Shown in pieces: positions 11,343 to 42,662 of a DNA stretch of 64,000 nt. Position numbers and translations under genes: made by a program. The notes under the pieces were generated by a model. The model ran no database searches, was not told where the DNA came from, and worked only from the letters and a program-made list of their open reading frames with translations. The first letter of the stretch is position 1; the number at the start of each line of letters is the position of its first letter. This stretch comes from Sphingopyxis sp. (lineage in GTDB: Bacteria; Pseudomonadota; Alphaproteobacteria; Sphingomonadales; Sphingomonadaceae): NCBI RefSeq assembly GCF_016793825.1, contig NZ_JAEULM010000016.1, forward strand, positions 33,930 through 97,929, read 5' to 3'.

Positions 11343-11394
11343 GGCACGGCTATAGCCAGCCGGGCGGGGCTTTGCGACCCCTTGTCGCCATAGA

Positions 11395-22375: not shown

Positions 22376-22397
22376 GATAAGCAGCCCTCTCTTCTAT

Positions 22398-22474
22398 CGT
22401 CATCCCGGCGAAGGCCGGGATCTCGCCGTGGCTGGAAACTCCACGGCGAGATCCCGGCCTTCGCCGGGATGACG
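22398..22474. repeat. Perfect CGTC-REP dimer (REPIN), 34-bp stem
   Basis: 22398-22431 is the exact reverse complement of 22441-22474, with a 9-nt loop. Each arm starts with CGTC and contains its own ATCCCGGC/GCCGGGAT hairpin. Confidence 0.95.
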
Positions 22475-22497
22475 GGATAGAAGGGAAGCGATGGCCG

Positions 22498-22764
22498 TCA
22501 CCCCGCTACCTTGCGCTCGGAAAAGGCGAGAAGATTGCCATAGGTTTCAAATATTTCGCCATCGATCTCATCATCGTCGATGATGATGCCGAGGCGATCC
22601 TCTATTTCGGTCAGCACCGTCGCGACCGCCATCGAATCGAATTCGGGCAGGGCGCCGAACAGGCCGCTGTCGTCGGTCAGAGCAGCGGCGCGACGTTCGC
22701 CGAGGCCGAGGACGTCGGCGAGCAGTGCGCGAAGAATGGCATCGACGGTGGCGTTATCGGTCAT
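22498..22764 (-). CDS. Acyl carrier protein (exosortase A system-associated)
   Basis: Acidic 88-aa protein with the phosphopantetheine motif LPEFDSMAV and the segment IEDRLGIII. Start MTDNATV (22764). Confidence 0.92.
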   Translation of the reverse strand: MTDNATVDAILRALLADVLGLGERRAAALTDDSGLFGALPEFDSMAVATVLTEIEDRLGIIIDDDEIDGEIFETYGNLLAFSERKVAG

Positions 22765-23768: not shown

Positions 23769-23785
23769 GAAGCTCCTAACAGCCG

Positions 23786-25318
23786 ATGACCACTTTAGAA
23801 AATCCGCCGTCGCGTCCGATCGACCATCTCGTCCATTTTGGCGCGCCGGATGCGGCTGCGCTGCTCATCGGCGACGCCGTCACCACGTTCGCCGACCTCG
23901 ATGCGGGCGTCGGCCGGCTGGCGTCGTGGCTGCTCGATCAGGTTGGCGGTCCCGGCGAGCGCGTCGCAAGCTGGAGCGCAAAGACGCGCGCCGCCTGCCT
24001 GATGCCGCTTGCCGCCGCGCGCGCGGGTTTGATCCATGTTCCCGTCAACCCGCTGCTGAAGGGGCCGCAAGTTGCGCACATCCTGTCCGACAGCGGCGCG
24101 AAACTGCTCGTCACCAATGCTGCGCGCGCAGACATGCTCGGCGCGGAACGCCCCGAAGACTGCGCATATCAGGATCTGAAGATCGCCGAAGACGTCATCG
24201 ATTCGGGTGGACAGGCGCTGCCGCCTTCGACCGCCCGGCCGGACGACCTGGCCGCGATCCTCTACACCAGCGGTTCGACCGGCCGCCCCAAGGGGGTGAT
24301 GCTGAGCCATGCCAATCTGTGGCTCGGCGCCGAGAGCGTGGCGTCCTATCTGAACCTCGTGCCCGATGATCGCGTGCTTGCGGTCCTGCCCTTCAGCTTC
24401 GATTATGGACAGAGCCAGTTGCTTTCAAGCTGGTACGCGGGGGCGGCGGTCGCACCGCTCGATTATCTGACCCCGCGCGACGTTGTGAAGACGGCCGCGC
24501 GGCATCGCATCACGACCCTTGCCGGCGTGCCGCCGCTGTGGGTGCAACTCGTCGAGAGCGAATGGCCTGCCGATACTGCCGCGCTGCTGAGGCGGCTGAC
24601 GAACAGCGGCGGTGCGCTGACGCCCTCGCTCATCGACGCGATGCGTGCGACTTTCCCTCGCGCCGATATCTACCCGATGTATGGGCTGACGGAGGCGTTT
24701 CGGTCGACCTGGCTCGATCCGGCGCTCGTCGCCGACCATCCGACGTCGATGGGCCGCGCGATTCCACACGCCGAAATCCTCGTTTGCCGCGCCGACGGCA
24801 GCATCACGAACGACGACGAGGCGGGCGAACTGGTCCATGCGGGTCCGCTGGTTGCCAAGGGCTATTGGCGCGACGAGGAGCGGACGGCGCAGCGCTTCCG
24901 GCCGGCGCCTGCCGCATCGCGTTATGGGGGAACGGCGGTCTGGTCGGGCGATACCGTGCGCCGCGATGGCGATGGACTGCTCTATTTCGTGGGCCGCGAC
25001 GATGCGATGATCAAAACGGCGGGCAATCGCGTCAGCCCGACGGAGATCGAGGATGTCGCGGTCGCTTCGGGCCTCATTTACGAAGCGGTGGCATTCGGCG
25101 TTCCCGACCCGCGGCTGGGCGCCGCGATCGTGCTGATCGTACGCGGCAGAAACGGCCGTGACGATGCCGACGGGCTTGCCGCCTATCTGCGACAGAATCT
25201 GCCGAATTTCATGCAGCCGCAAGTGGTCGAATGGCGCGATGCGTTGCCGCGCAATCCCAACGGCAAGCTCGACCGTGTCGCGATCGCGGCCGAGTGGGCG
25301 CCGAAGGTGGCGGCATGA
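23786..25318 (+). CDS. AMP-forming acyl-CoA/ACP ligase, exosortase A system-associated
   Basis: Adenylation motifs YTSGSTGRPKG, YGLTEA, SGD, VGR.D.MIK, PRNPNGK. Confidence 0.93.
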   Translation: MTTLENPPSRPIDHLVHFGAPDAAALLIGDAVTTFADLDAGVGRLASWLLDQVGGPGERVASWSAKTRAACLMPLAAARAGLIHVPVNPLLKGPQVAHILSDSGAKLLVTNAARADMLGAERPEDCAYQDLKIAEDVIDSGGQALPPSTARPDDLAAILYTSGSTGRPKGVMLSHANLWLGAESVASYLNLVPDDRVLAVLPFSFDYGQSQLLSSWYAGAAVAPLDYLTPRDVVKTAARHRITTLAGVPPLWVQLVESEWPADTAALLRRLTNSGGALTPSLIDAMRATFPRADIYPMYGLTEAFRSTWLDPALVADHPTSMGRAIPHAEILVCRADGSITNDDEAGELVHAGPLVAKGYWRDEERTAQRFRPAPAASRYGGTAVWSGDTVRRDGDGLLYFVGRDDAMIKTAGNRVSPTEIEDVAVASGLIYEAVAFGVPDPRLGAAIVLIVRGRNGRDDADGLAAYLRQNLPNFMQPQVVEWRDALPRNPNGKLDRVAIAAEWAPKVAA

Positions 25319-26544
25319 AGCCGCACGGCCCGATACCATCCGGCTTTTCCGCCGATGCCGATGGCATGCTGCTGATCGGCGGCCGGCGGGCCGACGACCT
25401 TGCTAAGGCTGCGGGCGATACGCCGCTCTTCGTCTATGACGGCGCGATGCTGGCCGCGCGGGTTGCCGAATGGCGCCGGGCGATGCCTGCCGAGGTGCAA
25501 TTGCATTATGCGATGAAGGCCAACCCTTACGCCCCATTGCTGGGGCGAATGGCTGGCCTTGTCGATGGGTTCGATGTCGCATCGGGCGGGGAACTCGCCG
25601 CCGCACTCGCTAGCGGCATGTCCGCGGACCACATCAGTTTCGCCGGCCCCGGCAAGCGCGATCGCGAGCTGGAGGCCGCCATATCGGCGGGTGCGACGAT
25701 CAATCTGGAATCGGCGGGTGAGGCCGATCGGGCGCTTGCGATCGGCGCGCGGCTTGGCGTCGTGCCCCGGCTCGCGGTCCGGGTGAACCCCGATTTCGAC
25801 CTCAAGGGGTCGGGGATGAAGATGGGCGGCGGCGCAAAGCCGTTCGGCGTCGATGCCGTCGCGGTTCCCGCGCTGGTCGGGCGCCTGCTCGAAGCCGGCG
25901 CCGATTGGCGGGGTTTTCATATTTTTGCCGGATCGCAGGCCCTTGATGCAGGGGCCATCGCCGATACGCAGGCGCAAACGCTCGCGCTCGCGGCACGCCT
26001 TGCGGCGGAGATCGGCCGCACGCCACCTCTCGTCAACCTGGGCGGCGGAATGGGCGTGCCCTATTTCCCGGGCGATACCGCCGTCGATGCCGTCGCGGTC
26101 GGTCGGGCGCTCGGCGATGCTCTTGCGGCGCGCGATCGGCGTCTTGCCGACAGTCGCTTCGCGATGGAACTCGGGCGCTGGCTGGTCGCCGAGGCGGGCG
26201 TATATCTGACGCGCGTCGTCGACAGGAAAACCAGCCATGGCGAGACCTTTCTGGTGACCGATGGCGGCCTCCACCATCAGCTTGCCGCGAGCGGCAATTT
26301 CGGGACCGTCATTCGCCGCAACTATCCGATCGCGGTGGCGAACCGCTTTGGCGCCGAACCTTCCGAAACGGTGTCGGTTGTCGGCTGTCTTTGCACGCCG
26401 CTCGATCGGCTCGGCGATCAGGTCGCACTTCCATATGCCGATGTTCATGATCTTGTTGTGATTTTTCAGGCGGGCGCCTATGGCGCAACCGCGAGTCCGT
26501 CGGCCTTTCTGGGGCAGGGGCGAGCGCAAGAGATGCTGGTCTGA
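25315..26544 (+). CDS. PLP-dependent decarboxylase (fold type III, DAP-DC/BtrK-like), exosortase A system-associated
   Basis: YAMKAN (PLP Lys), FAGPGK, HIFAGSQ, NLGGG, ELGR.LV, CLCTPLD, GAYG. Start MKPHGP overlaps the ligase stop (ATGA). Confidence 0.92.
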   Translation: MKPHGPIPSGFSADADGMLLIGGRRADDLAKAAGDTPLFVYDGAMLAARVAEWRRAMPAEVQLHYAMKANPYAPLLGRMAGLVDGFDVASGGELAAALASGMSADHISFAGPGKRDRELEAAISAGATINLESAGEADRALAIGARLGVVPRLAVRVNPDFDLKGSGMKMGGGAKPFGVDAVAVPALVGRLLEAGADWRGFHIFAGSQALDAGAIADTQAQTLALAARLAAEIGRTPPLVNLGGGMGVPYFPGDTAVDAVAVGRALGDALAARDRRLADSRFAMELGRWLVAEAGVYLTRVVDRKTSHGETFLVTDGGLHHQLAASGNFGTVIRRNYPIAVANRFGAEPSETVSVVGCLCTPLDRLGDQVALPYADVHDLVVIFQAGAYGATASPSAFLGQGRAQEMLV

Positions 26545-26726: not shown

Positions 26727-27389
26727 ATGAAAACGTCCTTCCCCTCGCTTCGCGCTGCCAAGGCCGCACTGGTTTCGGGCATCGCCGCGACCGCGCTCAC
26801 GGGCTGCATCGGCACCAGCGGGGGCCCCGCGCCGCAGTTGCCGAGCGCGAACTTCGTCGCCAATCAGGAAGGACCGGGCGAAGAATATATCATCGGGCCG
26901 CTCGACGAACTCCAGATCTTCGTCTGGCGCAATCCGGAGCTTGGCGGCAAGGTGCAGGTGCGCCCCGACGGCCGCATCACGACGCCACTGATCACTGATA
27001 TGCCCGCCGTCGGCAAGACGCCCACGATGCTGCAACAGGACATCAAGCTGCAACTCAGCCAGTATATCACCGATCCGATCGTCAGCGTGATCGTTACCAG
27101 TTTCAACAGCACCTTCTCGCAGCAGGTGCGCGTTGTCGGCGCGACCGAAAAGCCGGCGTCGATCCCGTTCCGTGCCAACATGACGGTGCTGGATGCGATG
27201 ATCGCGGTCGGCGGCCTTGGCGAATATGCCGCAGGCAACAAGGCGCGGCTGGTACGATTCGACAAGGGTACGGGCAAGCAGGAGGAGTTTGGCCTGCGCC
27301 TCAATGACCTGATCAAGCGCGGCGACATCAAAGCGAATGTCCGGTTGCAGCCGGGCGACGTGATCATCATTCCCGAAAGCATGTTCTGA
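26727..27389 (+). CDS. Polysaccharide export lipoprotein (Wza/OPX), XrtA system
   Basis: Lipobox LTGC, YIIGPLDEL.IFVWRNPEL, VRPDGRITTPL, LQPGDVIIIPES. Confidence 0.93.
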   Translation: MKTSFPSLRAAKAALVSGIAATALTGCIGTSGGPAPQLPSANFVANQEGPGEEYIIGPLDELQIFVWRNPELGGKVQVRPDGRITTPLITDMPAVGKTPTMLQQDIKLQLSQYITDPIVSVIVTSFNSTFSQQVRVVGATEKPASIPFRANMTVLDAMIAVGGLGEYAAGNKARLVRFDKGTGKQEEFGLRLNDLIKRGDIKANVRLQPGDVIIIPESMF

Positions 27390-27450
27390 CCAAAACCGAC
27401 CGCTGAATCGCAGCTTTTGCCCCAGAGGCTTTGAGGACTGACCAGAGACG

Positions 27451-28983
27451 ATGAACGGCCTTTACGACGAATTCCGGGTGGCGCTGCACAGCGTCTGGAC
27501 ACGCCGTTGGCTCGTGCTCGCCGTGGCGTGGGCAATCTGCATCCTCGGCTGGCTCGCGGTCGCCTCGATTCCGAACCGCTATGACAGCCGCGCTCGCTTG
27601 CTGGTCGATATCAATCAGATTTTGCCCGACGACGCGGCGGGTGCCAGCGGGCAGCAGATCGACCAGATCCGCGAAACGCTGACCAGTGCGCGCAATCTGG
27701 AAAAAGTGGCGGCAACGACCGGCTTGATCGGTCCCGATGCGGGCGAACGCGACAAGGCGGGCGCCGTCGCGATGCTGCAAAACAACATCAAGGTCGTCCC
27801 GCAGCAACAGAATATCTTCGAAATCACGTCGTCCGTAGCGGTCGGCAGCCTGTCGGACGCCGACAATGCCAAGCTGGCATCGGGCGTGCTCGACAGCCTG
27901 ATCACCGTGTTTCGTGACGATCAACTCCGCGGTGGCCGCACGGACGCGCGCGAAGGGTTGAAGTTTCTCGACGCCCAGATCGCCGATCGCGAAACCGCGC
28001 TGCGCGAGATCGAGGCGCGGCGCGCGACCTTCGAGGCGCAGAATATTGGCTTGATCCCCGGCGGCTCGGGTTCGCCGGCGCAGCGCGTCGATGCGGCGCG
28101 CGCCGAACTCAGCCAGATCGATTCGCAGCTCATATCGGCGCAGGCCCAGCTTTCGGCTGCGAGCGGTCAGCTTGCTTCAACGCCTGCCACGGTAGCGGGC
28201 GGCAATGGCGGCGTCGGTGGCAGCGTTGCGCGCCAGCAGCTTGCCGGCGCACAGGGCGAATTGTCGGCGATGCATGCACGCGGCCTGACCGATGCGCATC
28301 CCGACGTGATCGCGCTCAAGAGCCAGATCGCTTCGTTGAAGGCGATCGCCGACCGCGAAGGCACCGGCGGCGGCGGTGGTGGGGTGCAGAACCCAGCGTA
28401 TGCCTCGCTGGCAGCGATGCGTGCCGAGCGTCAGGCGACGGTGAGCGCGTTGAATGCTCGCAAGGCGCAGCTCATGGGCGATATCGCCCGGATCACCTCG
28501 CAGCAGATCCAGAACCCCGGCATCGCGGCCGAATATGACCGCATCAACGGCGAATACACCGCGCTGAAGGCGCAATATGACAAGCTTCTCGGCCAGCGCG
28601 AACAAGTCCGGATGCGCGGGCAGGTGCAGACGGAAACCGATGCGATCAAGGTTGAACTGCTCGACCCGCCTTCGAAGCCGACAAGCCCTGCGGCGCCAAA
28701 CCGACCACTGTTTCTGACGCTCGTGCTCATTGCCGGGCTGGGCGGCGGCGTCGCCGCGGCGTTCGGCCTCAGCCAGGTACGCACGAGCTATGCGACCGCG
28801 GCGAAGCTCGAACGCGCGAGCGGACTGCCGGTGATTGGTTCGATTACCGAGGTGGTAACCCCCGAGCGCCATGTCGAACGCAAGAAAAGGCTGGTGTGGC
28901 TCGCCGGCGGAGCGGGGGCGCTCGTCGGCCTCTATGCGCTGCTGCTGATCGCCGAGTTCGTCCAGCGCGGCATGGTCGCGTGA
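27451..28983 (+). CDS. Polysaccharide chain-length determinant (Wzc/Wzz transmembrane part)
   Basis: Two TM segments flank a coiled coil. Motifs THPDVIAL and LDPPSKP...PNR. Confidence 0.9.
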   Translation: MNGLYDEFRVALHSVWTRRWLVLAVAWAICILGWLAVASIPNRYDSRARLLVDINQILPDDAAGASGQQIDQIRETLTSARNLEKVAATTGLIGPDAGERDKAGAVAMLQNNIKVVPQQQNIFEITSSVAVGSLSDADNAKLASGVLDSLITVFRDDQLRGGRTDAREGLKFLDAQIADRETALREIEARRATFEAQNIGLIPGGSGSPAQRVDAARAELSQIDSQLISAQAQLSAASGQLASTPATVAGGNGGVGGSVARQQLAGAQGELSAMHARGLTDAHPDVIALKSQIASLKAIADREGTGGGGGGVQNPAYASLAAMRAERQATVSALNARKAQLMGDIARITSQQIQNPGIAAEYDRINGEYTALKAQYDKLLGQREQVRMRGQVQTETDAIKVELLDPPSKPTSPAAPNRPLFLTLVLIAGLGGGVAAAFGLSQVRTSYATAAKLERASGLPVIGSITEVVTPERHVERKKRLVWLAGGAGALVGLYALLLIAEFVQRGMVA

Positions 28984-28997
28984 GCGGGGAAGAAGAC

Positions 28998-30029
28998 ATG
29001 AACGATCAACGCCCCGTCAAGCGCCCGCCTTCGCTGCTCGAACGCGCGGCCGACATGTTCGGTCTCGACCCCGCGAAGGACGCGGCGACCATCGACGTTT
29101 CGAAGCTGCCGCCGGAGCCCGAGAAAAGGGTTCGCAAGAGCAAGGCGCAGACCGAATCCGTCGTCGAGGTTCGGCAGGCCGAAGTCCTGCCGCCGATCGT
29201 CGAAACTGCGCCCGCGGTCGAAGCGGCGCCAGCGCCGACACCCTCGGCGCGCAAGGACGTCGCCAGGGCCGCCCCTGCCGTCGTTCCAACGCGGCAAGGA
29301 AGCATCGATCGCGCGCGTCTCGCCGCCAACAGCATGATCGTACCGGGCGCGCCTGTCACGGGCATTTCCGAAGAATATCGCATCGTGAAGCGCGAGATCA
29401 TCCGGAACTTTTCGGGCACCGCGAACCGGCCGGTCGTGCCGCGCGGACATCGCGTCCTGATCGCGTCCGCCAACCCCGGCGAAGGCAAGACCTTTTCCGC
29501 TGTCAACCTCGCACTCAGCCTCGCGGTCGAAGCCGACCACGATGTGCTGCTGATCGACGCCGATATCGCGAAGCCGAGCGTGCTCGATACGCTGGGCCTC
29601 GAAAACGGCCCGGGTCTGATGGATGCGCTGGCGGATCCGCACCTGCCGCTCGGCGATTGCCTGATCCAGACCGATATTCCGGGGCTGAAGGTCATGCCTG
29701 CGGGGACGCAGCGCCTGAACGATACCGAATTGCTCGCATCGGCGCGGACCGAGGCCTTGCTTGCCCAGCTTGAGGCGGGCGCGCCCGGGCGCATTCTGAT
29801 CCTCGATTCGCCTCCGGTTCTTGCGGCGTCGCCCGCTGCGGTGCTTGCGGGGCACGTCGGCCAGCTGATCATGGTCGTGCGCGCCGACCAGACGATGGAA
29901 AGCGCATTGCGCGATGCGATCGGACTGATGGGCGCGTGCCCGCATATCCAGCTTCTCCTCAACGGAGTGAAATTCTCGCCGGGCGGCCGCCGCTTCGGCA
30001 CCTATTATGGACAGGGAGGCGCGTCATGA
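28998..30029 (+). CDS. XrtA-associated tyrosine autokinase (CpsD/CapB)
   Basis: SEEYRIVK, Walker A SANPGEGKT, LLIDAD, ILDSPP, C-terminal TYYG. Start MNDQRP (28998). Confidence 0.9.
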   Translation: MNDQRPVKRPPSLLERAADMFGLDPAKDAATIDVSKLPPEPEKRVRKSKAQTESVVEVRQAEVLPPIVETAPAVEAAPAPTPSARKDVARAAPAVVPTRQGSIDRARLAANSMIVPGAPVTGISEEYRIVKREIIRNFSGTANRPVVPRGHRVLIASANPGEGKTFSAVNLALSLAVEADHDVLLIDADIAKPSVLDTLGLENGPGLMDALADPHLPLGDCLIQTDIPGLKVMPAGTQRLNDTELLASARTEALLAQLEAGAPGRILILDSPPVLAASPAAVLAGHVGQLIMVVRADQTMESALRDAIGLMGACPHIQLLLNGVKFSPGGRRFGTYYGQGGAS

Positions 30030-31741
30030 TGCGCACCAATGCCAGTATGCGCCGTGGGGCGGCGCTTGCGGCGCTGTTGCTCGCCGGAACCGCGACGAGC
30101 GCGCAGGCGCAGTTTTCGGGTGATCCGGGCGCGAGCGATGCGTCGCCCCGGGGAGCATCCGCTGCCGACGGTGCCGCGGACAAGAAGGGCAAGCGTGGCG
30201 AACGCCAGCGCAAGGAACGCCGCGTCGATGTCAGCCCCTATCTCGAAGTCGGGCAGGTGCTCAGCGCCGACCTCAAGAATGGCGGCGATGTTCTGACCTA
30301 TACGACCGCGGCGATCGGCGTCGACGTTGCGGTGGCGACGCGCCGGGCGGAGGTCGCGGCGGGTGTCCGGTACGAGCATCAGTTCGGCTGGGGCAAACAG
30401 AACGATCAGGATGTGATCAGCGGTATCGCGCGCGGGCGGGTCGATGTCGCGCAGGGGCTCAGTCTCGAAGGCGGCGCGCTTGCCACGCGCACGCGCGCCG
30501 ACGGTGGCGGCAGCGACAGCAGCCTGTTCGTCGGCAACCGGAACAATGTTGCGAACACCTATTCCTTTTATGCCGGCCCGACCTTCGCGCGCCGTATCGG
30601 CGGACTGGATGTCGGGGCGGGGTATCGCTTCGGCTACACCAAGGTCGACGTGGACGCGCCGACATTGCTGCCGTCCGGCGCGCTCGTGCAAAATGTCTTC
30701 GACAGCTCGACAAACCATGTCGCCTGGGCAAGCGTCGGCCAGCGGCCGGGTGATCTGCCGTTCGGCTGGCAGGTTTCCGGCGGCTATGAACGCGAGGACG
30801 CGAGCCAGCTGGACCAACGCTATGAAGGCAAATTCGCGCGCGCCGACGTGACCGTGCCGGTCGGCCCGACCTTGGCGCTGCTTGGCGGTGTCGGCTATGA
30901 GAATATCGAGATCGGCCAGCGCGATCCGGTGCTCGACGTCAACGGCGTGCCGGTCCGCGACGCCAGCGGTCGCTTCGTCACCGACACGTCGACGCCGCGC
31001 AAGCTTGCGTTCGATACCGACGGGTTGATCTGGGATGCGGGCGTCATGTGGCAGCCAAGCCGTCGCACGTCGCTTACTGCAAAGGTCGGCCGCCGTTATG
31101 GCGACATGATCTACACCGGCAGTTTCGTTTATCGCCCCGACCACGCGACGACGTTTCAGGTCGGCGTTTATGACGGGCTTTCCAGCTTCGGGCGCGGGCT
31201 GTCGACCGGGCTAGCGGCGCTTCCGACGCAGTTCGACCCCTTGCGCAACCCGATAACCGGCGATTTCAACAATTGCGTCTTCGGCGAACAGGGTGGGGGT
31301 TGCCTGGGCAATCAGCTCGGCACGCCGACCGCGGCGCAGTTCCGCAATAGCGGCGTCCAGGCCGTCATGAGTTCGCGCACCTATGGCTGGAGCTATGGCG
31401 TCGGCGTCGGCTATGATCGCCGCCGCCTGCTGGTGCCGCGTACGTCGCCGATCGCGTCGCTCAACGGCATCACGGACGAGAATTATTATCTGTTCCTGAC
31501 CGCTGGCCATCCGATCGACCGCGATTCCGACATTACCTTGTCGGGCTATCTCAATTATTTCGACAATGGTTCGCCGGGGGGCAGTGATGTCCAGTCCGCC
31601 GGTCTGACGGCATCCTATGGACGGCGTTTCTGGCGCGGCCTGACGGGAACGGCGGCCGCCAGCCTGACCGCTTTCGATCAGGACGGCTTCAACAGCCAGT
31701 TGATCGGATCCGCTCTGGTGGGCCTGCGTTACAATTTCTGA
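30026..31741 (+). CDS. Outer-membrane beta-barrel protein of the PEP-CTERM/XrtA locus
   Basis: Signal peptide, alternating beta-strand pattern, terminal LRYNF. The start overlaps the kinase stop (ATGA). Confidence 0.8.
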   Translation: MMRTNASMRRGAALAALLLAGTATSAQAQFSGDPGASDASPRGASAADGAADKKGKRGERQRKERRVDVSPYLEVGQVLSADLKNGGDVLTYTTAAIGVDVAVATRRAEVAAGVRYEHQFGWGKQNDQDVISGIARGRVDVAQGLSLEGGALATRTRADGGGSDSSLFVGNRNNVANTYSFYAGPTFARRIGGLDVGAGYRFGYTKVDVDAPTLLPSGALVQNVFDSSTNHVAWASVGQRPGDLPFGWQVSGGYEREDASQLDQRYEGKFARADVTVPVGPTLALLGGVGYENIEIGQRDPVLDVNGVPVRDASGRFVTDTSTPRKLAFDTDGLIWDAGVMWQPSRRTSLTAKVGRRYGDMIYTGSFVYRPDHATTFQVGVYDGLSSFGRGLSTGLAALPTQFDPLRNPITGDFNNCVFGEQGGGCLGNQLGTPTAAQFRNSGVQAVMSSRTYGWSYGVGVGYDRRRLLVPRTSPIASLNGITDENYYLFLTAGHPIDRDSDITLSGYLNYFDNGSPGGSDVQSAGLTASYGRRFWRGLTGTAAASLTAFDQDGFNSQLIGSALVGLRYNF

Positions 31742-31756
31742 TTCGGGGAACAGGCG

Positions 31757-32929
31757 ATGTACGATCAATATTATGGTTTCACCGGCCGTCCCTTCCAGCT
31801 GACGCCGGACCCCGCTTTCTATTTCGAGAGCGGCACGCACCGGAAGGCCATGTCCTACCTTGGCTACGGCCTCGCGCAGGGAGAGGGCTTCATCGTCATC
31901 ACCGGCGATGTCGGTGCGGGCAAGACGACCCTCGTCGGGCACCTCATGAACACGATCGACCCCAATCGGCTGACCGCGGTCAAGCTGGTGTCGACGCAGG
32001 TCGAGGGCGACGACCTTCTCCGCCTTGTCGCGGAGCAGTTCGGCCTTGAATGGGAAGGGCAAAGCAAGGCCGAATTGCTGCGTTCGATGGAGGAATATCT
32101 GCGCGACCAGGCGCGCGCCGGCCGCCGCACCCTTCTGATCGTCGACGAGGGACAAAATCTCGCCATCTCGGCGCTCGAAGAGCTGCGGATGCTGTCGAAC
32201 TTCCAGCTCGGCGGTCATTCGCTGCTGCAGATCTTCCTGCTGGGGCAGCCCGAATTCCGCCAGACGCTGTTCCACACGCCGACGCTCGAACAACTTCGCC
32301 AGCGTGTGATCGCGACGCACCACCTCGATCCGATGGAGCCCGAGGAAGTCGAACCCTATATCCTCCACCGCCTGAAGAAGGTTGGCTGGACCGGAAATCC
32401 CAGTTTCGCGCCCGAGGCGTACGAACTGATCTTCGATTATAGCGACGGCGTGCCGCGCAAGTTGAACGTGCTGGTCAGCCGTCTGCTGCTGTTCGGCGCG
32501 GTCGAGGAACTGCATCGCATCTCGGCGCAGCATGTCCGCAATGTCATCGCCGAGGTCGAAGCCGATCGCGGCGTCGACGAGGCGAGCCTCGCGCCGCTGC
32601 CGGTCGAGGAGGTCGTCGCGCATGCCGCGGCCGCTGTTGCGCCGGCCGAGGATCGCGCGCTCGATTGGCCTGCGGCGGCGCCGGACGGGCGAGCGCCGTT
32701 CGCTGCGCCGATCGAAGTCGGCGAGACAGCGGATAATTCTGCGCCCGTGGCGCCCGCCATCGACGAGGCACAGATCGCCGAGCTTCAGCGGCATATCGCG
32801 AGCCTCGAGGAACGGCTGGTCGAACAGGACGCGGCGCTGCGTCGCGTACTCGACCTGCTGATCGAATGGGTCGAACGTGATCCCGAGAACGCACCCAACC
32901 CGGCGAAATCCGAGGTCTGGGCCGCGTGA
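31757..32929 (+). CDS. ExeA-like AAA ATPase, XrtA/PEP-CTERM system-associated
   Basis: YGFTGRPFQLTPDP, GDVGAGKTT, IVDEGQN, LLGQPE, LRQRV, GVPRKLN. Confidence 0.92.
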   Translation: MYDQYYGFTGRPFQLTPDPAFYFESGTHRKAMSYLGYGLAQGEGFIVITGDVGAGKTTLVGHLMNTIDPNRLTAVKLVSTQVEGDDLLRLVAEQFGLEWEGQSKAELLRSMEEYLRDQARAGRRTLLIVDEGQNLAISALEELRMLSNFQLGGHSLLQIFLLGQPEFRQTLFHTPTLEQLRQRVIATHHLDPMEPEEVEPYILHRLKKVGWTGNPSFAPEAYELIFDYSDGVPRKLNVLVSRLLLFGAVEELHRISAQHVRNVIAEVEADRGVDEASLAPLPVEEVVAHAAAAVAPAEDRALDWPAAAPDGRAPFAAPIEVGETADNSAPVAPAIDEAQIAELQRHIASLEERLVEQDAALRRVLDLLIEWVERDPENAPNPAKSEVWAA

Positions 32930-32974: not shown

Positions 32975-33835
32975 ATGCAGAACGGCCTGTCGGTCGATGT
33001 CGAGGACTGGTTTCAGGTCGGCGCATTTGAGCGCACGATCGACCGTGCCGACTGGCCGGCGCTGGAATGCCGCGTCGAGGCGAATGGCGATGCCGTGCTG
33101 CAAATATTCTCCGACGCGGGGGTTCGGGGCACGTTCTTCACGCTCGGCTGGGTTGCCGAACGCTATCCTGCATTGATCAAGCGCATTGTCGATGCGGGGC
33201 ACGAACTCGCGAGCCACGGCTATGACCACAAACGGGTGTTCCACATGACGGCCGACGAGTTCGCGGCGGACCTGAAGAAGACGCAGGCGATTCTCGAAGA
33301 TATCGGAGGCACCCCAATTCGCGGGTATCGCGCGCCCAGCTTTTCGGTCGACGCGCGCACACCGTGGGCTCACCCGGTTCTCGCCGAACAGGGCTATGCC
33401 TATTCGTCGAGCGTCGCGCCGGTGGTGCACGATCATTATGGCTGGTCGGAAAGTCCGCGCCATGTCTGGCAGCCGCTTGATGACAGCGCGCTCGTCGAAT
33501 GGCCGGTGGCGACCGCCCGGATCGCCGGGCGCACGCTCGCGGCGGGCGGCGGAGGGTTCATGCGGATGCTGCCATATGGCTTCACACGCTGGGCCGTCGC
33601 GCGAATGAATGCCGAAGGCCATCCGGCCATCCTCTATTTCCACCCGTGGGAGATCGATCCCGGGCAGCCGCGGGTCGCGAACGCGCCGATCAGGTCGAAA
33701 GTTCGTCATTACACCGGCTTGGCGGCCATGGCTGGCAAGCTGAAGAAGCTGCTTGCCGATTTCGAATGGACGCGGGCCGATGCTCTGCTTCCGGCCCAAC
33801 AGGAGCGCGCCCGGCCATGGCGCGCCGCTGCGTGA
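32975..33835 (+). CDS. Polysaccharide deacetylase, XrtA system
   Basis: SVDVEDWF, TFFTLG, HELASHG, GYRAPSFS, YFHPWEIDP. Confidence 0.93.
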   Translation: MQNGLSVDVEDWFQVGAFERTIDRADWPALECRVEANGDAVLQIFSDAGVRGTFFTLGWVAERYPALIKRIVDAGHELASHGYDHKRVFHMTADEFAADLKKTQAILEDIGGTPIRGYRAPSFSVDARTPWAHPVLAEQGYAYSSSVAPVVHDHYGWSESPRHVWQPLDDSALVEWPVATARIAGRTLAAGGGGFMRMLPYGFTRWAVARMNAEGHPAILYFHPWEIDPGQPRVANAPIRSKVRHYTGLAAMAGKLKKLLADFEWTRADALLPAQQERARPWRAAA

Positions 33836-34899
33836 ACGCACCCGTGCATCCGGTAATGGACGCGATCACGGTGTTGCCGCTGGACGACCCGGCGGCATGG
33901 GATGCCTATGTCGTCGCCCACCGGGACGCTACGCCGTTCCACAGCAGCGCCTGGTGCCGCGCGGTGACGAAAGCGACTGGCCATCGGTGCCATGCGCTGG
34001 CGGCGTATGATGCGAAAGGCGCGATGGCGGGTTTGTTGCCGCTCCACCACATCCGCTCGCCGCTGTTCGGGCAGGCGCTGGTTGCCACGGGCTTCGCCGT
34101 CGATGGGGGGATGCTCGTCGGCAGCAAGTCGGTTGCCGCCGCGCTTTCAGAAGCGGCGGCCGGGCTGGCCCGGACGCTCGGCATTTCATCGGTCGAGTTG
34201 CGCGGCGGTCCCCTGCCGGACGGCGAAGGCTGGCGCCGCGAAGACGGGACCTATGCGGGTTTCATCCGCGATCTTGCAACCGACGATGAGGCCGAACTGC
34301 TCGCCATTCCCCGCAAACAGCGGGCCGAAGTGCGCAAGGCGCTGGAAAGCGACCTGACCGTGACGACGGGGCACGGCGCGGCCGAGCGGCGCGATCATTA
34401 TCGCATCTATGCGACGAGCGTCCGCAACCTCGGCACGCCGGTCTTTCCGAAACGGCTCTTTGATGCGGTGCTCGATGCCTTCGGTGACGATGCCGATATC
34501 CTGACCATTCGCGAGAAGGGCCAGCCGGTCGCCAGTGTGCTGAGCCTGTACTGGCGTGGTGCGGTCATGCCCTATTGGGGCGGCGGCACGGCCGCCGCGC
34601 GCAAGTTGCGCGCCAACGAACTGATGTATTTCGCGCTGATGCGGCACGCTCGTGCAAAGCGATGCGCCCGGTTCGATTTCGGCCGGTCCAAGGTTGGAAC
34701 CGGCCCCTGGTCGTACAAGAAGAACTGGGGTTTCGAACCGCGCCCGCTCGTCTATTCGCGTTGGCTCGCGCCGGGTGAGGCGGCGCGCGACACGAATCCG
34801 AACAGCGCCAAATACCGGTTGCAGGTCGATCTTTGGAAAAAGCTGCCGCTCTGGGCGGCGAACCGCATCGGGCCGTTGATCGCGCGCGGACTGGGTTAG
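33832..34899 (+). CDS. FemAB-like (GNAT-fold) protein, XrtA system
   Basis: TPFHSSAW, RKQRAEVRK, VRNLGTPVF, YWGGG, FDFGRSK, YKKNWG. The GTG start overlaps the deacetylase stop. Confidence 0.9.
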   Translation: MNAPVHPVMDAITVLPLDDPAAWDAYVVAHRDATPFHSSAWCRAVTKATGHRCHALAAYDAKGAMAGLLPLHHIRSPLFGQALVATGFAVDGGMLVGSKSVAAALSEAAAGLARTLGISSVELRGGPLPDGEGWRREDGTYAGFIRDLATDDEAELLAIPRKQRAEVRKALESDLTVTTGHGAAERRDHYRIYATSVRNLGTPVFPKRLFDAVLDAFGDDADILTIREKGQPVASVLSLYWRGAVMPYWGGGTAAARKLRANELMYFALMRHARAKRCARFDFGRSKVGTGPWSYKKNWGFEPRPLVYSRWLAPGEAARDTNPNSAKYRLQVDLWKKLPLWAANRIGPLIARGLG

Positions 34900-34905: not shown

Positions 34906-36111
34906 ATGCCCGAAATCCTGTTTCTCGTCCATCGCGCGCCTTGGCCGCCCGACCGCGGTGACCGGATCCGTAGCTGGCACATGTTCGAAGCGCTTGCAAA
35001 GCTGGCGCCGGTGCATGTCGTGGCGCTGGCCGACAACGAGGCCGGCGCGGATATGGCGCGCCGAAAAATGGCACCGCTTTGCAAAAGCTTGTTGATTGAG
35101 GTGCGCAAGGCATCTCGTCCGATCGCACTTGCGCAGGCGGTATGGCGCGGCGAACCGGTATCGAACCGGCTGTTCAGGAGCGCGGCTGTCATACGGCATG
35201 TCGACGGGTTGCTGCGCGGGCGCGACATCACGCATATCGTCGCCTTCTCGGGCCAGATGGCGCAATATCTGCCGGACGCATTCGACGGTCCCGTCATCAT
35301 GGATTTCGTCGATGTCGACTCCGCGAAATTCGCAACTTACGCGGCGCAGGATGCTCGGCAGCCGCTGCACTGGATTCATGCGCGCGAGGCGCGCGAACTG
35401 GGCGCGTTCGAGGTCGCCGTCGCGCGCGCCGTCGATACCAGCCTCTTCGTCAGCGAAGCCGAAGCCGCGCTCTTTCGCGACCAAAGCGGTCTCGGCGTCG
35501 ACAAGGTTCGCGCGGTCGAGAATGGCATCGACACCGATGTTTTCGATCCATCGCTGCCCTTCGAAGCGATCGACCGACCTGCGGGACCGCTGGCGGTCTT
35601 TACCGGGCAGATGGACTATCGTCCGAACATCGACGCCGTGCGCTGGTTCGCGACCGACGTGCTTCCGATCATCCGTCGCCGCCATGCTGCTGCGGGCTTC
35701 GCCATCGTCGGCCGCGCCCCGACCGAAGAGGTGCGCGCACTGGCGGCGCTGCCCGGCGTGACCGTCACCGGCGAGGTACCCGACATGCGCCCCTGGCTCG
35801 CAGCGGCCGATGCGGTCGTGGCGCCATTGCTGCTCGCGCGCGGGGTGCAGAACAAGTTGCTCGAAGCCATGGCGATGGCGCGGCCGGTGGTTGCGAGCGC
35901 CGCTGCCGCAACGGGGATCGACGCCCAGCCCGGGACGCACCTGCTTGTCGCCGAGGGTGCGGGCGCAATGGCAGCCGCGACCGTGAAGCTTTTCGACGAT
36001 CCCGATGCGGCCACGAAAATGGGCCAGGCAGCGCGCGCGCAGATGATTGCCCGCTACGGTTGGGGCGCGCGGTTGGCTCCGCTCGCGGGCCTGTTGGGGC
36101 TGGCGGCATGA
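34906..36111 (+). CDS. GT4 glycosyltransferase, XrtA system
   Basis: HRAPWPPDRGDRIRS, DFVDVDS, NGID, FTGQMDYRPN, GVQNKLLEAMAMARPVV. Confidence 0.92.
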   Translation: MPEILFLVHRAPWPPDRGDRIRSWHMFEALAKLAPVHVVALADNEAGADMARRKMAPLCKSLLIEVRKASRPIALAQAVWRGEPVSNRLFRSAAVIRHVDGLLRGRDITHIVAFSGQMAQYLPDAFDGPVIMDFVDVDSAKFATYAAQDARQPLHWIHAREARELGAFEVAVARAVDTSLFVSEAEAALFRDQSGLGVDKVRAVENGIDTDVFDPSLPFEAIDRPAGPLAVFTGQMDYRPNIDAVRWFATDVLPIIRRRHAAAGFAIVGRAPTEEVRALAALPGVTVTGEVPDMRPWLAAADAVVAPLLLARGVQNKLLEAMAMARPVVASAAAATGIDAQPGTHLLVAEGAGAMAAATVKLFDDPDAATKMGQAARAQMIARYGWGARLAPLAGLLGLAA

Positions 36112-37622
36112 CGGCGGCGGAGACGATGGCTTCGGCAAAGGGCTGGACGCACTGGCAGCGGCATCTGACAGCACTTGCGGCGCTGTCGGCTGCGATCATT
36201 GCCATTTTCCATCGCGATGCCGCGGACATGGTTGGGATCTGGTGGCACAGCTCCACCTTCACCCATTGTCTGTTGATGGTGCCGATGATCGGCTGGCTCG
36301 TTTCGCAGCGCACGGCGCTGCTGAAGCCGCTGATGCCGGCCTGCTGGTGGCGGGCGCTTGTCTGGATCGCGGGAGCCGGGGTGGTCTGGCTGGTCGGCGA
36401 AGCGGCCGGCGTCGCTTTGTTTCGCCAACTCGGGCTGGTGTTGATGTTGCAGGGTGCGGTCGCCGTTACCCTGGGTGAAAAGCTGACGAGAGGCCTGCTC
36501 TTTCCGCTCGCCTATGCGCTGCTGCTCGTGCCGTTCGGTGAGGAGCTCGTCCCGCTTCTCCAGACGCTGACGGCGCAGATTTCGATGCTGCTGCTCCATC
36601 TCTCGGGCTTGCCGGCCGAGCTGGAAGGCGTCTTCATCACGACGCGCGCCGGCTTCTTCGAAGTGGCGGAGGCCTGCTCGGGGGTCAATTTCCTGATCGC
36701 GATGCTCGCCTATTCGGTGTTCGCCGCGCATCTGTGTTTCAAAAGCTGGACGCGGCGGATCGTGTTCGTCGCGCTGGCACTCGCAACGACGATCCTTGCC
36801 AACGCCCTGCGCGCCTATGGCACGATGGTCGCCGCCGAAATCTGGGGGATAGAGGCGGCGGGCGGGATCGATCATGTCTTTTACGGGTGGGTCTTCTTCG
36901 GGCTGGTCGTGCTGGTCGTGATGCTCGTCGCACGGCGTTCGTTCGACCGGCCGGCGAACGATATCGCCGTCGATGTAACGCGGCTGGGCGGTGTGCCGCG
37001 TCACGTCGGTTCGGCGAAAATGGTGCTTCCCGCCGCGCTTGCCATTCCCTTGCTGTTCGTGGGCTGGGCAATGCTGATCGGTGGCCGATCGGCGCCGCTT
37101 CCAGGGAGCATGCCGGTTGCGACGCCTCCCGGCTGGATGGCTGCTTCGCCTGGACAAGTGGCGTGGCTCCCGCGTTTCGACGGCGCCGATCAGCAGGTCG
37201 TCCGTCATTTCGAAGATGCCGCCGGTCGCCGCGTTACCGTCGCGATCGGCGGATACCGGCGGCAAGCCGAGGGGCGCGAAGTCGTCGGATTCGGACAGGG
37301 CGCGATCGACCCGGACAGCAGATGGGCGTGGAGCGCGGCGTTGGCCCCCATTGACGGCGGCAAGGCCGAACGGTTGCTTCATCCCGGCCCCGTGCTGCGC
37401 GATGCCGTGACTTGGTATGTCGTCGACGGTCGGGTTTCCGGAAGCGGGCGCGCCGCCAAGCTGGCGGGTCTGGAAGCGCGTTTATTTGGTGGCGATCCGC
37501 GTGCGCTGTCGCTGATCGTGTCGTCTGAAGAGGTAAAAGGCGGCCACGATGCGATCGCCGATTTCGTTTCCGCGTCGGGCGGAGCGCAGGCGATGGCTGA
37601 CCGCGCGCTGAAACTGCGCTAA
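36108..37622 (+). CDS. xrtA: Exosortase A fused to an EpsI-like domain
   Basis: TFTHCLL, FEVAEACSG (catalytic Cys), ANALRA (Arg), DH..YGW (His), followed by a periplasmic EpsI-like C-terminus. Start MTAAET (36108). Confidence 0.93.
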   Translation: MTAAETMASAKGWTHWQRHLTALAALSAAIIAIFHRDAADMVGIWWHSSTFTHCLLMVPMIGWLVSQRTALLKPLMPACWWRALVWIAGAGVVWLVGEAAGVALFRQLGLVLMLQGAVAVTLGEKLTRGLLFPLAYALLLVPFGEELVPLLQTLTAQISMLLLHLSGLPAELEGVFITTRAGFFEVAEACSGVNFLIAMLAYSVFAAHLCFKSWTRRIVFVALALATTILANALRAYGTMVAAEIWGIEAAGGIDHVFYGWVFFGLVVLVVMLVARRSFDRPANDIAVDVTRLGGVPRHVGSAKMVLPAALAIPLLFVGWAMLIGGRSAPLPGSMPVATPPGWMAASPGQVAWLPRFDGADQQVVRHFEDAAGRRVTVAIGGYRRQAEGREVVGFGQGAIDPDSRWAWSAALAPIDGGKAERLLHPGPVLRDAVTWYVVDGRVSGSGRAAKLAGLEARLFGGDPRALSLIVSSEEVKGGHDAIADFVSASGGAQAMADRALKLR

Positions 37623-39529: not shown

Positions 39530-39713
39530 CGCTTCCGCCCGAGCGGTGTTGATGGTCGTTACGAGGACGTGCCAGACGTCGACCGACCATTCTCGTCATC
39601 GCCGGGACGACCGTGTCTGGACCGCTAGCTGTCATTTCGTCCTGCGGAAGAAGATCGAAGGGCGTAGATGAATCGCCACGCCCTTTTAACGACTTGCTGC
39701 TAGGCTGCGCGCG

Positions 39714-40910
39714 ATGACGGTTCATCCCGCCTTTCCCATCAGCGGTACGCCAGTGCCTTCCGACGCGGCGCCCTTGACGGTGCGCGTCGTCGATCCGCTC
39801 GCGTTGTCGGACGACCTTGCCGCGGCTTGGGACCGACTTGCCGACGGGGCCAGCGAGCCCAATCCTTTCGCCGAACGCTGGTGTCTGCAATCGGCGCTGC
39901 ATCTGCTCGATCCCGACCGGCGGGCGCGGCTGGTGTTCGTCCGGGAGGGGAGTGACGGCGCGCTCATCGGGGTGATGCCGCTTGCGCCGGCGTCCAGATA
40001 TGGACGTTTGCCGTTGCGGCACGTGACGGGTTGGGCTCACCCCAACCAGTTCCATGGCGCGCCACTCGTCCGGGCCGGAATGGAGCATCTCTTCTGGTCG
40101 ATCCTGCTGGGTTGGTGCGATGCCTCGGATTGGGCGCACACGCTGCTTCATGTGCCGCGACTGACCGAAGATGGGCCTTTGCACCTCGCGCTTGTCGATG
40201 CTGTGCGGGCGCGCGGCGCCGAGGCCGAGGTCGTACATCGCGAGGAGCGCGCGTTGCTGGAAAGCAGCCTGTCGCCCGAAGCCTATTGGGATGAAGCCGT
40301 ACGCGCAAAAAAGCGCAAGGAACTCCGCCGTCAGGCCAATCGGCTTGCCGAGCAGGGGCTCCCCTCCTTCCGCCATTGGCGGGCCGGGGATGGGCTCAAC
40401 GTCTGGATCGACGATTTCCTCCATCTCGAGGTGCGCGGCTGGAAAGGCAAAGCGGAATCGGCGCTGGCCAGCCATGGCGAGACCGAAGCCTGGTTTCGGG
40501 CGATCCTTGCGGGTGCGGCCGAAGCGGGCAAGCTGGACATGCGTTCACTCGATCTCGACGGGCGGCCGCTCGCGATCCTGATCAATTTCCTGTGCCCGCC
40601 GGGCGGCTTTTCTTTCAAGACGGCGTTCGATGAGGAATATGCGCGTTTTTCGCCCGGCGTGCTGTTGCAGCAAGCGAACCTCGATCTGCTGAACGATGGC
40701 CGTCTCGGGTGGGTGGACAGCTGCGCGGCGCCCGGACATCCGATGATCGACAGTGTGTGGCGCGAGCGCCGTCATCTCGTGTGGATCAATGCGCCCTTGT
40801 CGGGCGGTTCCGACCGGCTGCGCTTTCGCGCGCTGGCCAAGGTAGAGAGGGTCTGGCGGCGCTGGAAAGACGGGCCATCGGTCGCCAGTTCTGTGCAGGA
40901 TGCGACATGA
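39714..40910 (+). CDS. GNAT-fold acyltransferase (CelD/BcsL-like)
   Basis: EPNPFAE.W, KKRKELRRQ.NRL, LE..GWKG, FKTAFDEEYARFSPG.LL, DSCA.PGHPM. Confidence 0.85.
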   Translation: MTVHPAFPISGTPVPSDAAPLTVRVVDPLALSDDLAAAWDRLADGASEPNPFAERWCLQSALHLLDPDRRARLVFVREGSDGALIGVMPLAPASRYGRLPLRHVTGWAHPNQFHGAPLVRAGMEHLFWSILLGWCDASDWAHTLLHVPRLTEDGPLHLALVDAVRARGAEAEVVHREERALLESSLSPEAYWDEAVRAKKRKELRRQANRLAEQGLPSFRHWRAGDGLNVWIDDFLHLEVRGWKGKAESALASHGETEAWFRAILAGAAEAGKLDMRSLDLDGRPLAILINFLCPPGGFSFKTAFDEEYARFSPGVLLQQANLDLLNDGRLGWVDSCAAPGHPMIDSVWRERRHLVWINAPLSGGSDRLRFRALAKVERVWRRWKDGPSVASSVQDAT

Positions 40911-41773
40911 AAACCGTGCAAGCTGACCTCGAACATGTCTTCCCCGACGAAACGATCGCCCGGATGGAGGCTCTCTATCCCGCGCAGGCGGGGCTGCTGC
41001 ATCATCTTCTGCCCGATCATCCGCTTCTTTCGCTCGAGGCGTTGGCACAGCTTGGCGAAGGCCTGCCTGGCGCGCAGGTCGAATATAATCCCGGCGATGT
41101 GCCGATCGGCATCAAGCCCGCGGACATCCCCACGAATGGCCTTTCGATCGGCGAGACAATCCGCACGATCGATACCAACCGCAGCTGGGCCGTGCTCAAG
41201 AATATCGAGACCGTCGCCGAATATCGCGCGCTCCTCATGGATCTTCTCGGCGAACTGAAGTCCGTAGTCGAGCCGCGGACCGGCGCCATGCTGACGCCGC
41301 AGGGCTTTGTCTTCATCTCTTCGCCCGGATCGATCACGCCGTTCCATTTCGATCCCGAGCATAACATCCTGCTGCAACTGCGCGGACGGAAAGTGATGAA
41401 TGTCTGGCCGGCGGGCGATGAGCGCTTTGCGCATCGTGTCGAGCATGAACGCTATCACACGGGCGGCCACCGCAACCTGCCGTGGCAAGAGGCGTATCGG
41501 GACGGGGCGCAGCAGGTGCCGCTCGGTCCGGGTGACGCCGTGCTGATGCCGGTGATGGCGCCGCATTTCGTTGCCAATGGAGACGCGCCGTCGGTGTCGC
41601 TTTCGATCACCTGGCGCAGCGAGTGGAGCTATCGCGAGTCGGAGGCGCATGCTGCCAACGCCGCGCTTCGGCGTATGGGGCTCGACCCCGCCATGCCGCC
41701 GCGCTGGCCAAGCTATGCCTGGGTAAAGACCGTCGGCTGGCGTATCGCGCGCAAGCTTGGGTTGGTGTCCTGA
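40907..41773 (+). CDS. JmjC/cupin-like Fe(II)/2-oxoglutarate dioxygenase
   Basis: TPFHFDPEHNILLQLRGRK (HxD plus Lys), LGPGDAVLMP, distal PHFV. Start MKTVQAD overlaps the GNAT stop (ATGA). Confidence 0.85.
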   Translation: MKTVQADLEHVFPDETIARMEALYPAQAGLLHHLLPDHPLLSLEALAQLGEGLPGAQVEYNPGDVPIGIKPADIPTNGLSIGETIRTIDTNRSWAVLKNIETVAEYRALLMDLLGELKSVVEPRTGAMLTPQGFVFISSPGSITPFHFDPEHNILLQLRGRKVMNVWPAGDERFAHRVEHERYHTGGHRNLPWQEAYRDGAQQVPLGPGDAVLMPVMAPHFVANGDAPSVSLSITWRSEWSYRESEAHAANAALRRMGLDPAMPPRWPSYAWVKTVGWRIARKLGLVS

Positions 41774-41856: not shown

Positions 41857-42075
41857 ATGGCGAAAGAAGAACTTCTGGAAATGCGCGGCCAGGTGGTCGA
41901 ACTGCTCCCCAACGCGATGTTCCGCGTTAAGCTGGAAAACGATCACGAGATTCTGGGCCACACGGCCGGGAAAATGCGCAAGAACCGCATTCGCGTGTTG
42001 GTCGGCGACGAAGTTCTCGTTGAACTCACTCCCTATGACCTGACCAAGGGTCGGATCACCTATCGCTTCAAGTGA
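41857..42075 (+). CDS. infA: Translation initiation factor IF-1
   Basis: [28 protein letters not shown]...GRITYRFK. Confidence 0.98.
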
Positions 42076-42662
42076 GCGGCGCGGCGACACCTCCCGCGCT
42101 GGTTCTCGCTTCGACTTCGCCCCGGCGTCTCGAACTGCTCGCGCGGATCGGCCTGACGCCGTCGCGCATTGCGGCGCCCGAGATCGATGAAACGCCGCTG
42201 AAGGGAGAGCTTCCGCGCGCCTATGTAGCGCGGCTTGCGCAGAGCAAGGCGCTTGCGGTCGATCGCGCGGCGGAAGAGGCCGTGCTGGCGGGCGATACGA
42301 CGGTCGCGGTCGGACGCCGTATTCTCGAAAAGCCGACCGACGAAGCCGATCTTCGCCGCATGCTCCTGCTGCTCTCGGGGCGGCGGCACCATGTCTATTC
42401 GGGCGTTTGCGTCGTCGGTATCGACGGCAGGCCGCGCGTTCGCGTTGCCGATACGATCGTCGCCTTCAAGAGGCTGAGCGCCGCCGAGATCGACTGGTAT
42501 GTCGAAAGCGGTGAGGGAATGGGCAAGGCGGGCGGCTACGCGATCCAGGGCCGGGCCGAGATATTCGTCCGGTTCCTGTCGGGCAGCCATTCGAACGTCG
42601 TCGGCCTGCCGCTTCTGGAAACGCGCGGCTTGCTGAGCAGCGCTGGCATTCCGCTTGGCTGA
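42072..42662 (+). CDS. maf: Maf-family nucleoside triphosphate pyrophosphatase
   Basis: [40 protein letters not shown]. Confidence 0.95.

Follow-up and report, generated by a model that had tools for sequence, protein, structure and literature searches.

A Fem-like tandem-GNAT protein and a JmjC-type oxygenase form a conserved, sometimes fused pair at the edge of an exopolysaccharide locus in Sphingopyxis

The gene pair and its encoded proteins

The window analyzed here is a 64,000-nucleotide stretch of Sphingopyxis sp. contig NZ_JAEULM010000016.1, and our subject is a pair of plus-strand genes within it that closes an exopolysaccharide (EPS) locus of the XrtA type. The first gene (39714-40910) encodes P0002, an Acetyltransf_6 (PF13480) tandem-GNAT protein of 398 amino acids (aa) with a FemX-like fold, and the second (40907-41773) encodes P0001, a JmjC/Cupin_8 oxygenase of 288 aa. 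Their open reading frames (ORFs) overlap in an ATGA start/stop motif at 40907-40910 (plus strand) that can be read directly from the sequence, and a Shine-Dalgarno-like AGGA lies 6 nucleotides (nt) 5' of the cupin ATG, an arrangement indicative of translational coupling. An initial annotation, made from the sequence alone, had described the genes as ATGA-coupled and the second as carrying an intact H-x-D...H triad and the GRK motif of JmjC enzymes, and both descriptions hold.

P0002 matches the Pfam family Acetyltransf_6 at 72.4 bits against a cutoff of 22 and is a member of it. The match of P0001 to Cupin_8 reaches 30.6 bits (cutoff, 27.4), and its match to JmjC_2 falls below the cutoff of that model. 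The segment 'TPFHFDPEHN...LRGRK...APHF' of P0001 aligns with JMJD5 and FIH. The HxD motif (H147-F-D149) and the distal histidine (H220) align with the metal ligands of JMJD5, and K162, within 'LRGRK', aligns with the JMJD5 'GRK' at the position of the lysine that binds 2-oxoglutarate (2OG), as the aligned lysine does in both JMJD5 and FIH. Across 15 to 16 aligned homologues, H220 is invariant and H147, D149, and K162 are conserved in at least 90%; the catalytic residues are kept in all homologues, fusion proteins included, the sole exception being a stand-alone paralogue with no GNAT partner, described below.

Both genes are single copy in their own 3.86-Mb genome, in which a search with P0002 returned no paralogue at E <= 0.001, and the close homologues of the pair all come from Sphingopyxis. 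P0001 matches no NCBIfam family. Neither protein matches any of the TIGR030xx XrtA-associated models, unlike the products of the neighboring genes, and P0002 does not match TIGR03019, the model for the FemAB-family protein of this locus.

Conservation of pairing and fusion

The distribution of the pair demonstrates that the GNAT and the cupin are a real functional unit. Among 151 genomes of the same order (Sphingomonadales), the GNAT occurs in 17, and the cupin gene directly adjoins it in every one of these; the two genes usually overlap, with overlaps of 4 to 25 nt recurring in other genera. A cupin profile search of 300 other alphaproteobacterial genomes, in which absence refers to the searched genomes only, recovered homologues in eight. 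In six of the eight, an Acetyltransf_6 gene adjoins the cupin gene or lies no more than 1.7 kb from it, and the loci of the remaining two are truncated by contig ends. The more distant carriers show three different gene orders: G305 has two GNAT-cupin pairs plus another Acetyltransf_6 gene, in G160 and G344 the cupin comes first, followed by a Wzx flippase gene and then the GNAT, the cupin precedes the GNAT in G397 and G254, and the GNAT precedes the cupin in G220. That the association persists while gene order varies speaks for selection rather than inherited synteny.

When 1.84 billion representative proteins were searched with the cupin profile, the picture extended to single polypeptides. 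At E <= 1e-30, the search gave 416 cupin clusters (50% identity), and the best 150 of those 416 include proteins, from several metagenomic lineages, in which an N-terminal Acetyltransf_6 domain is fused to a C-terminal Cupin_8/JmjC domain, namely P0145 (664 aa), P0147 (574 aa), P0148 (680 aa), and P0202 (660 aa). We considered frameshifts or assembly artefacts as the source of these fusions and rejected them, since P0148 is identical on many independent contigs (24 contigs, indexed in 81 collection blocks). In the unfused metagenomic representatives P0183 and P0226, the Acetyltransf_6 gene lies immediately upstream of the cupin gene. The coupling is strong but not absolute: P0146 is a lone cupin with an intact triad, and GNAT homologues without a cupin occur in G389, in G232, in G279, and as a second copy in G397. 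As the coupling is nevertheless conserved across genera, a chance arrangement is excluded, and the conserved adjacency, overlap, and fusion bear out the proposal of the initial annotation that the two genes are a coupled transferase/hydroxylase unit.

Two loci preserve altered forms of the cupin. In G030, a stand-alone cupin paralogue of 37% identity (L016:8355-9173) sits beside hppA with no GNAT neighbor, in the hppA-side position where sister genera hold the intact pair; its counterparts of H147, D149, and K162 are R, A, and Q, and to judge by these substitutions the protein is probably catalytically dead. In G122, which belongs to the same genus as the window, the GNAT gene is intact and the cupin gene is split into two pieces (L017:9555-11661; pieces at 9555-9779 and 11029-11661) by an insertion of ~1.25 kb carrying HTH_Tnp_1 and rve (IS3-type) ORFs.

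Relation to the XrtA locus

The canonical XrtA locus occupies the sequence 5' of the pair. NCBIfam models identify a hydrolase 1 of the XrtA/PEP-CTERM locus (20922-22046, minus strand), the acyl-CoA ligase TIGR03098 (23786-25318), and the decarboxylase TIGR03099 (25231-26544), and Pfam identifies an Acetyltransf_6 protein of 335 aa (22761-23768, minus strand). Genes for an export protein, a chain-length determinant, a tyrosine kinase, an outer-membrane-protein-like ORF, and an ATPase follow (26727-32929), succeeded by those for a deacetylase (32975-33835), the FemAB-family protein TIGR03019 (33832-34899, plus strand), a glycosyltransferase (34906-36111), the exosortase (36114-37622), and, as the last gene of the canonical locus, the XrtA/PEP-CTERM amidotransferase TIGR03108 (37634-39529, plus strand; 886 bits against a cutoff of 816.9). 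Downstream of the pair, infA (41857-42075, plus strand), recognized as IF-1 by its translation and by Pfam eIF-1a, marks a boundary outside the module and is followed by maf (42072-42662) and an Rne/Rng-like gene. The pair thus closes the EPS locus, as the initial annotation had stated, lying at its 3' edge between the XrtA genes and housekeeping genes, and the region does contain the three long GNAT-fold proteins counted there: that of the pair, the Acetyltransf_6 protein at 22761-23768, and the TIGR03019 protein at 33832-34899.

A spacer of 184 bp separates the amidotransferase gene from the GNAT gene. Within it, a GC-rich hairpin followed by TTTT (39658-39685), found as a terminator-like match and present as a hairpin in the centroid fold, is a weak candidate for an operon boundary; the spacer overall folds no better than shuffled sequences (z = -0.27), and a search for a promoter belonging to the pair found no sigma-70-like site.

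The initial annotation had proposed that the pair completes the acyl carrier protein (ACP)/ligase/decarboxylase module at 20922-26544, with the JmjC enzyme hydroxylating an ACP-bound aminoacyl unit of the module and the GNAT transferring the product. In the genus of the window, the pair indeed lies ~13 kb downstream of the module and shares its strand with most of the XrtA locus, and all 17 pair-bearing Sphingomonadales genomes also carry TIGR03099, a co-presence that says little, since TIGR03099 is found in 34 of the 37 genomes of that family in any case. The broader distribution is decidedly at odds with such a link. Phylogenetic profiling against the decarboxylase, set beforehand as the test, places TIGR03099 above its cutoff in 76 of the 151 genomes and the pair in 17; the 59 sampled genomes that have the decarboxylase and lack the pair include all nine of genus g3. 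G131, of the same genus as the window, retains the XrtA locus together with the decarboxylase (its halves on two contigs) and has no pair. Conversely, three pair carriers (G305, G160, and G344) have no match to TIGR03099 or TIGR03108 above cutoff. Independent occurrence was what the initial annotation had named as counting against its proposal, and for the ACP part the pattern found is of that kind.

Gene neighborhoods tell the same story. The pair adjoins the XrtA amidotransferase only in the genus of the window (g1; G000, G057, G122, and G143). In 13 genomes of seven sister genera, with the amidotransferase and decarboxylase genes taken as markers of the XrtA locus, it lies 160 to 790 kb from those genes or on another contig; there the typical setting is hisD, nusB, thiL, and hppA, then GNAT and cupin, in some genomes another Acetyltransf_6 gene, and then tesB. 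The genome of the window holds hppA and tesB on other contigs than the pair, and we therefore conclude that the pair has changed position. It is a genus-specific neighbor of the XrtA locus and not a component of the ACP/ligase/decarboxylase module, which corrects the earlier picture of this locus. With a transferase whose fold matches tRNA- or coenzyme A (CoA)-dependent enzymes rather than ACP-dependent ones (see below), the distribution largely refutes the ACP-based explanation, and we regard it as highly improbable.

Two further anchors for the pair were considered and rejected: infA-maf, given that maf is nearby only in the genus of the window and in G397, and hppA/tesB, given their placement on other contigs in the window's own genome. 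The G397 locus (L022:7790-10778) is a divergent cupin-then-Acetyltransf_6 pair directly beside maf, to which the Sphingopyxis pair is connected via infA; this adjacency may be a coincidence or a remnant of an older position.

The Acetyltransf_6 gene at 22761-23768 and the ligase gene of the ACP/ligase/decarboxylase module are divergent, the former immediately upstream of the latter. The Acetyltransf_6 product matches no NCBIfam model, although all of its neighbors belong to curated XrtA-associated families, and it is a better transferase candidate for that module than the GNAT-cupin pair.

Predicted structures and known relatives

The AlphaFold model of P0001 (predicted local distance difference test [pLDDT], 85) was matched by Foldseek, at a probability of 1.00, to YxbC (1vrb/7zcc), NO66, a YcfD-like ribosomal oxygenase, FIH, and JMJD5. 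P0001 is modeled as a double-stranded beta-helix, which groups it with the hydroxylases among the JmjC-type Fe(II)/2OG oxygenases. It shares that core, the HxD...H triad, and the 2OG lysine with YxbC (of Bacillus subtilis), YcfD/NO66, FIH, and JMJD5 at sequence identities of 11 to 21%. NO66 (~455 residues) is far longer than P0001, which aligns to part of it (template modeling [TM] score by target, ~0.35). Unlike P0001, none of these relatives is known to be paired with a Fem-like transferase.

The model of P0002 (pLDDT, 87) has a tandem GNAT architecture, and its best Foldseek matches, over ~370 aligned columns, are FemX (1ne9), FemA, MprF/aaPGS, and Sba18/Sbb17. These tandem GNATs (1ne9, 1lrz, 9goe, 4v34, and 9wqx) resemble P0002 with TM scores of ~0.5 to 0.65 and E values of 1e-8 to 1e-11. 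They use aminoacyl-tRNA, and their likeness to P0002 is one of fold, sequence identity being 8 to 13%. A PDB sequence search with P0002 returned nothing significant. The clavulanate tandem GNAT 2wpw, which uses acetyl-CoA, scores close behind the FemX group, so that the modeled fold of P0002 cannot by itself tell tRNA-dependent from CoA-dependent tandem GNATs. The comparison lends no support to the idea that this GNAT is an ACP-linked transferase: its fold is like that of the aminoacyl-tRNA-dependent Fem/MprF enzymes and not of ACP-dependent ones. A predicted complex of the GNAT and the cupin scored 0.01 (mark, 0.32), which we count neither for nor against an interaction.

Brucella BspF (NF047385) is the only named family that P0002 matches, and it does so along almost all of its sequence (residues 34-383 to model positions 58-409; E, 1e-39). 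At 136.3 bits against a cutoff of 775, P0002 is not a member of that family, and BspF is a relative rather than an orthologue. BspF is described as a secreted type IV secretion system effector that acts on host proteins (PMC7821425).

The nearest studied analogue is HfsK (CC3689) of Caulobacter crescentus, which, with its paralogues CC2278 and CC1244, is described in the relevant passages of PMC5362036 as a soluble tandem GNAT whose nearest solved fold is FemX. The same passages report that HfsK modifies the holdfast polysaccharide, that its homologues cluster with EPS systems, and that it is proposed to acylate polysaccharide precursors, possibly at amines exposed by a deacetylase. The likeness of HfsK to P0002 consists of the shared fold and of the family description in those passages of PMC5362036, not of a sequence comparison. 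HfsK differs in binding cyclic di-GMP, and the portions of that paper concerned with it describe no JmjC partner (PMC5362036).

Within the window, the TIGR03019 FemAB-family protein (33832-34899) resembles P0002 in its PF13480 domain and in its recurrent link to EPS loci. The CelD/BcsL-type Acetyltransf_6 proteins of cellulose loci appear likewise to combine PF13480 with a recurrent exopolysaccharide link.

The initial annotation had also invoked butirosin biosynthesis, assigning the JmjC enzyme the role of BtrO. The analogy holds as one of role, in the idea of hydroxylating an aminoacyl unit that is then transferred to a glycan-type acceptor, and fails as one of descent: BtrO is a flavin-dependent monooxygenase that acts on an ACP-bound intermediate and not a JmjC enzyme, BtrH is not a GNAT, neither is homologous to a member of the pair, and the distribution of the pair shows no ACP link.

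Our literature search found no paper on a pairing of a JmjC enzyme with a Fem-like or Acetyltransf_6 protein and no characterized member of either family as paired here. The passages searched of a comparative genomic study of bacterial JmjC neighborhoods (PMC2938197) likewise make no mention of GNAT or Fem proteins. The pair is a set of known enzyme folds in a conserved, sometimes fused, and uncharacterized combination.

Genomic contexts bearing on the substrate

Genes for surface polysaccharides recur around the pair in separate lineages. In the genus of the window, the pair abuts the XrtA locus. In G305, a minus-strand run (L019:9445-16479) of three Acetyltransf_6 genes, two JmjC/cupin genes, and a Wzx-type flippase gene is flanked by genes for Wzz, GT4, Wzy, and a polysaccharide deacetylase, an expanded version of the module. 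G160 and G344 place the Wzx flippase gene between the cupin and the GNAT genes, and the pairs of all three of these genomes lie in Wzx/Wzy-type polysaccharide clusters. The gene for the fused P0202 adjoins that for a Polysacc_synt flippase, and in G389 a Polysacc_synt_3 gene lies ~2.5 kb from the GNAT gene with an ATP-grasp gene between them. The recurrence of homologous pairs in such clusters makes an (amino)acyl substrate linked to a glycan plausible; of the ACP- or glycan-bound aminoacyl substrate first proposed for the oxygenase, the ACP-bound alternative is not supported by the distribution.

A number of contexts weigh against a glycan substrate. The pairs of the 13 sister-genus genomes lie among housekeeping genes with no glycan gene nearby. 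The G397 pair is beside maf and amino acid enzymes, the G254 pair beside an autotransporter and DUF4915, the G220 pair beside an L,D-transpeptidase, and the fused P0148 with genes for a TPR-sulfotransferase, an Asp/Arg hydroxylase, and an additional JmjC protein, a context resembling the peptide-modification neighborhoods described in PMC2938197. Moreover, the solved oxygenase relatives whose substrate is stated in the match list all act on proteins.

These observations feed the main rival explanation, in which the GNAT would (amino)acylate a residue of a protein or peptide and the JmjC enzyme would hydroxylate a side chain of the same protein. Such a role would parallel those of the ribosomal oxygenases, FIH, and JMJD5 and that of BspF, which acts on lysines. 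The closest solved oxygenase folds include the protein hydroxylases NO66, YcfD-like, FIH, and JMJD5, BspF, the sole named family with sequence similarity to the GNAT, reportedly changes the crotonylation of proteins (PMC7821425), and most sister-genus contexts, like infA directly downstream in the window, are of a housekeeping kind. The setting of P0148 fits this explanation as well. Yet at least four separate lineages place Wzx or other polysaccharide genes beside the pair or between its members, the pair is accompanied by no conserved gene for a candidate substrate, and the BspF match is far below its cutoff (136 versus 775 bits). We consider a protein target unlikely, albeit a serious contender.

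Proposed function

We tentatively favor, at not quite an even chance, a reading in which the pair is an autonomous module for (amino)acylation and hydroxylation that likely acts on a surface glycan precursor; glycan precursor tailoring is preferred because several separate lineages have polysaccharide genes near the pair and because HfsK is the nearest studied analogue. The pair would then be a self-sufficient, cotranslated two-enzyme tailoring module. The analysis shows the folds, the intact catalytic residues, and the conserved coupling and fusion; donor, acceptor, and sequence of steps are what we infer from them. In this scheme, the Fem-type tandem GNAT would first move, in the cytoplasm, an acyl or aminoacyl group onto a nucleophile of the acceptor. 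Its fold points to an aminoacyl-tRNA donor, such as FemX, MprF, and Sbb17 use; the alternative would be a short acyl-CoA, which has been reported for the distant relative BspF. The JmjC oxygenase would then hydroxylate a side-chain carbon of the appended group, or might instead hydroxylate the acceptor just before transfer. The acceptor would most likely be a sugar destined for a surface polysaccharide, either lipid-linked or nucleotide-activated; the candidate polysaccharide in Sphingopyxis is the XrtA-dependent EPS, the locus of which adjoins the pair. In its most specific form, a Fem-type aminoacyl-tRNA-dependent transferase would load an amino acid onto a surface glycan precursor and the JmjC enzyme would thereafter hydroxylate its side chain, an undescribed pathway to which we assign a rather low probability.

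A membrane lipid or a small metabolite has also to be weighed as the acceptor. An aminoacylated or N-acylated lipid head group could be made and then hydroxylated in the manner of MprF/aaPGS or of the ornithine lipid enzymes OlsB/OlsC, and it is true that the soluble domains of MprF/aaPGS count among the structures that match the GNAT best and that tesB, which encodes acyl-CoA thioesterase II, follows the pair in nine sister-genus loci. But the proximity of tesB and hppA has the look of conserved housekeeping synteny, in the genome of the window neither gene is linked to the pair, neither protein is fused to an MprF-like flippase membrane domain (as judged by Pfam matches, lengths, and models), and no lipid synthesis genes recur near the pair. 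A lipid or metabolite target seems to us quite improbable.

The pair bears on two questions in bacterial enzymology. Almost all that is understood of the JmjC-only oxygenases concerns the hydroxylation of protein or tRNA, and the Acetyltransf_6/Fem-like proteins of Gram-negative EPS loci, such as HfsK and the PEP-CTERM FemAB, still have undefined donors and acceptors. The pair is a compact, tightly coupled, and sometimes fused system that addresses both, available as two proteins or as one natural fusion, and it comes with natural knockouts: a Sphingopyxis species whose cupin is disrupted by an insertion sequence (G122) and a genome of the same genus that lacks the pair (G131). If the aminoacylation and hydroxylation of a glycan proposed above were true, the pair would represent a new route to hydroxy-aminoacyl decorations of exopolysaccharides. 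Were the substrate a glycan, P0001 would also be, to our knowledge, the first bacterial JmjC hydroxylase whose substrate is neither protein nor tRNA.

Additional loci

Two sets of loci carry further genes beside the pair. The metagenome contigs that encode P0148 (L031:5262-12127) combine the fusion gene with an Asp_Arg_Hydrox gene, an ORF of 305 aa without a family, a gene for a JmjC-like protein of 288 aa, and a divergent TPR-sulfotransferase gene, with a TonB-dependent receptor gene adjoining, and the cluster appears to be devoted to the hydroxylation and sulfation of a target. In three sister-genus genomes (L004, L008, and L015; for example, L015:7810-8850, minus strand), a second, divergent Acetyltransf_6 gene encoding a protein of ~345 to 390 aa follows the cupin gene, which gives a GNAT-cupin-GNAT arrangement before tesB.

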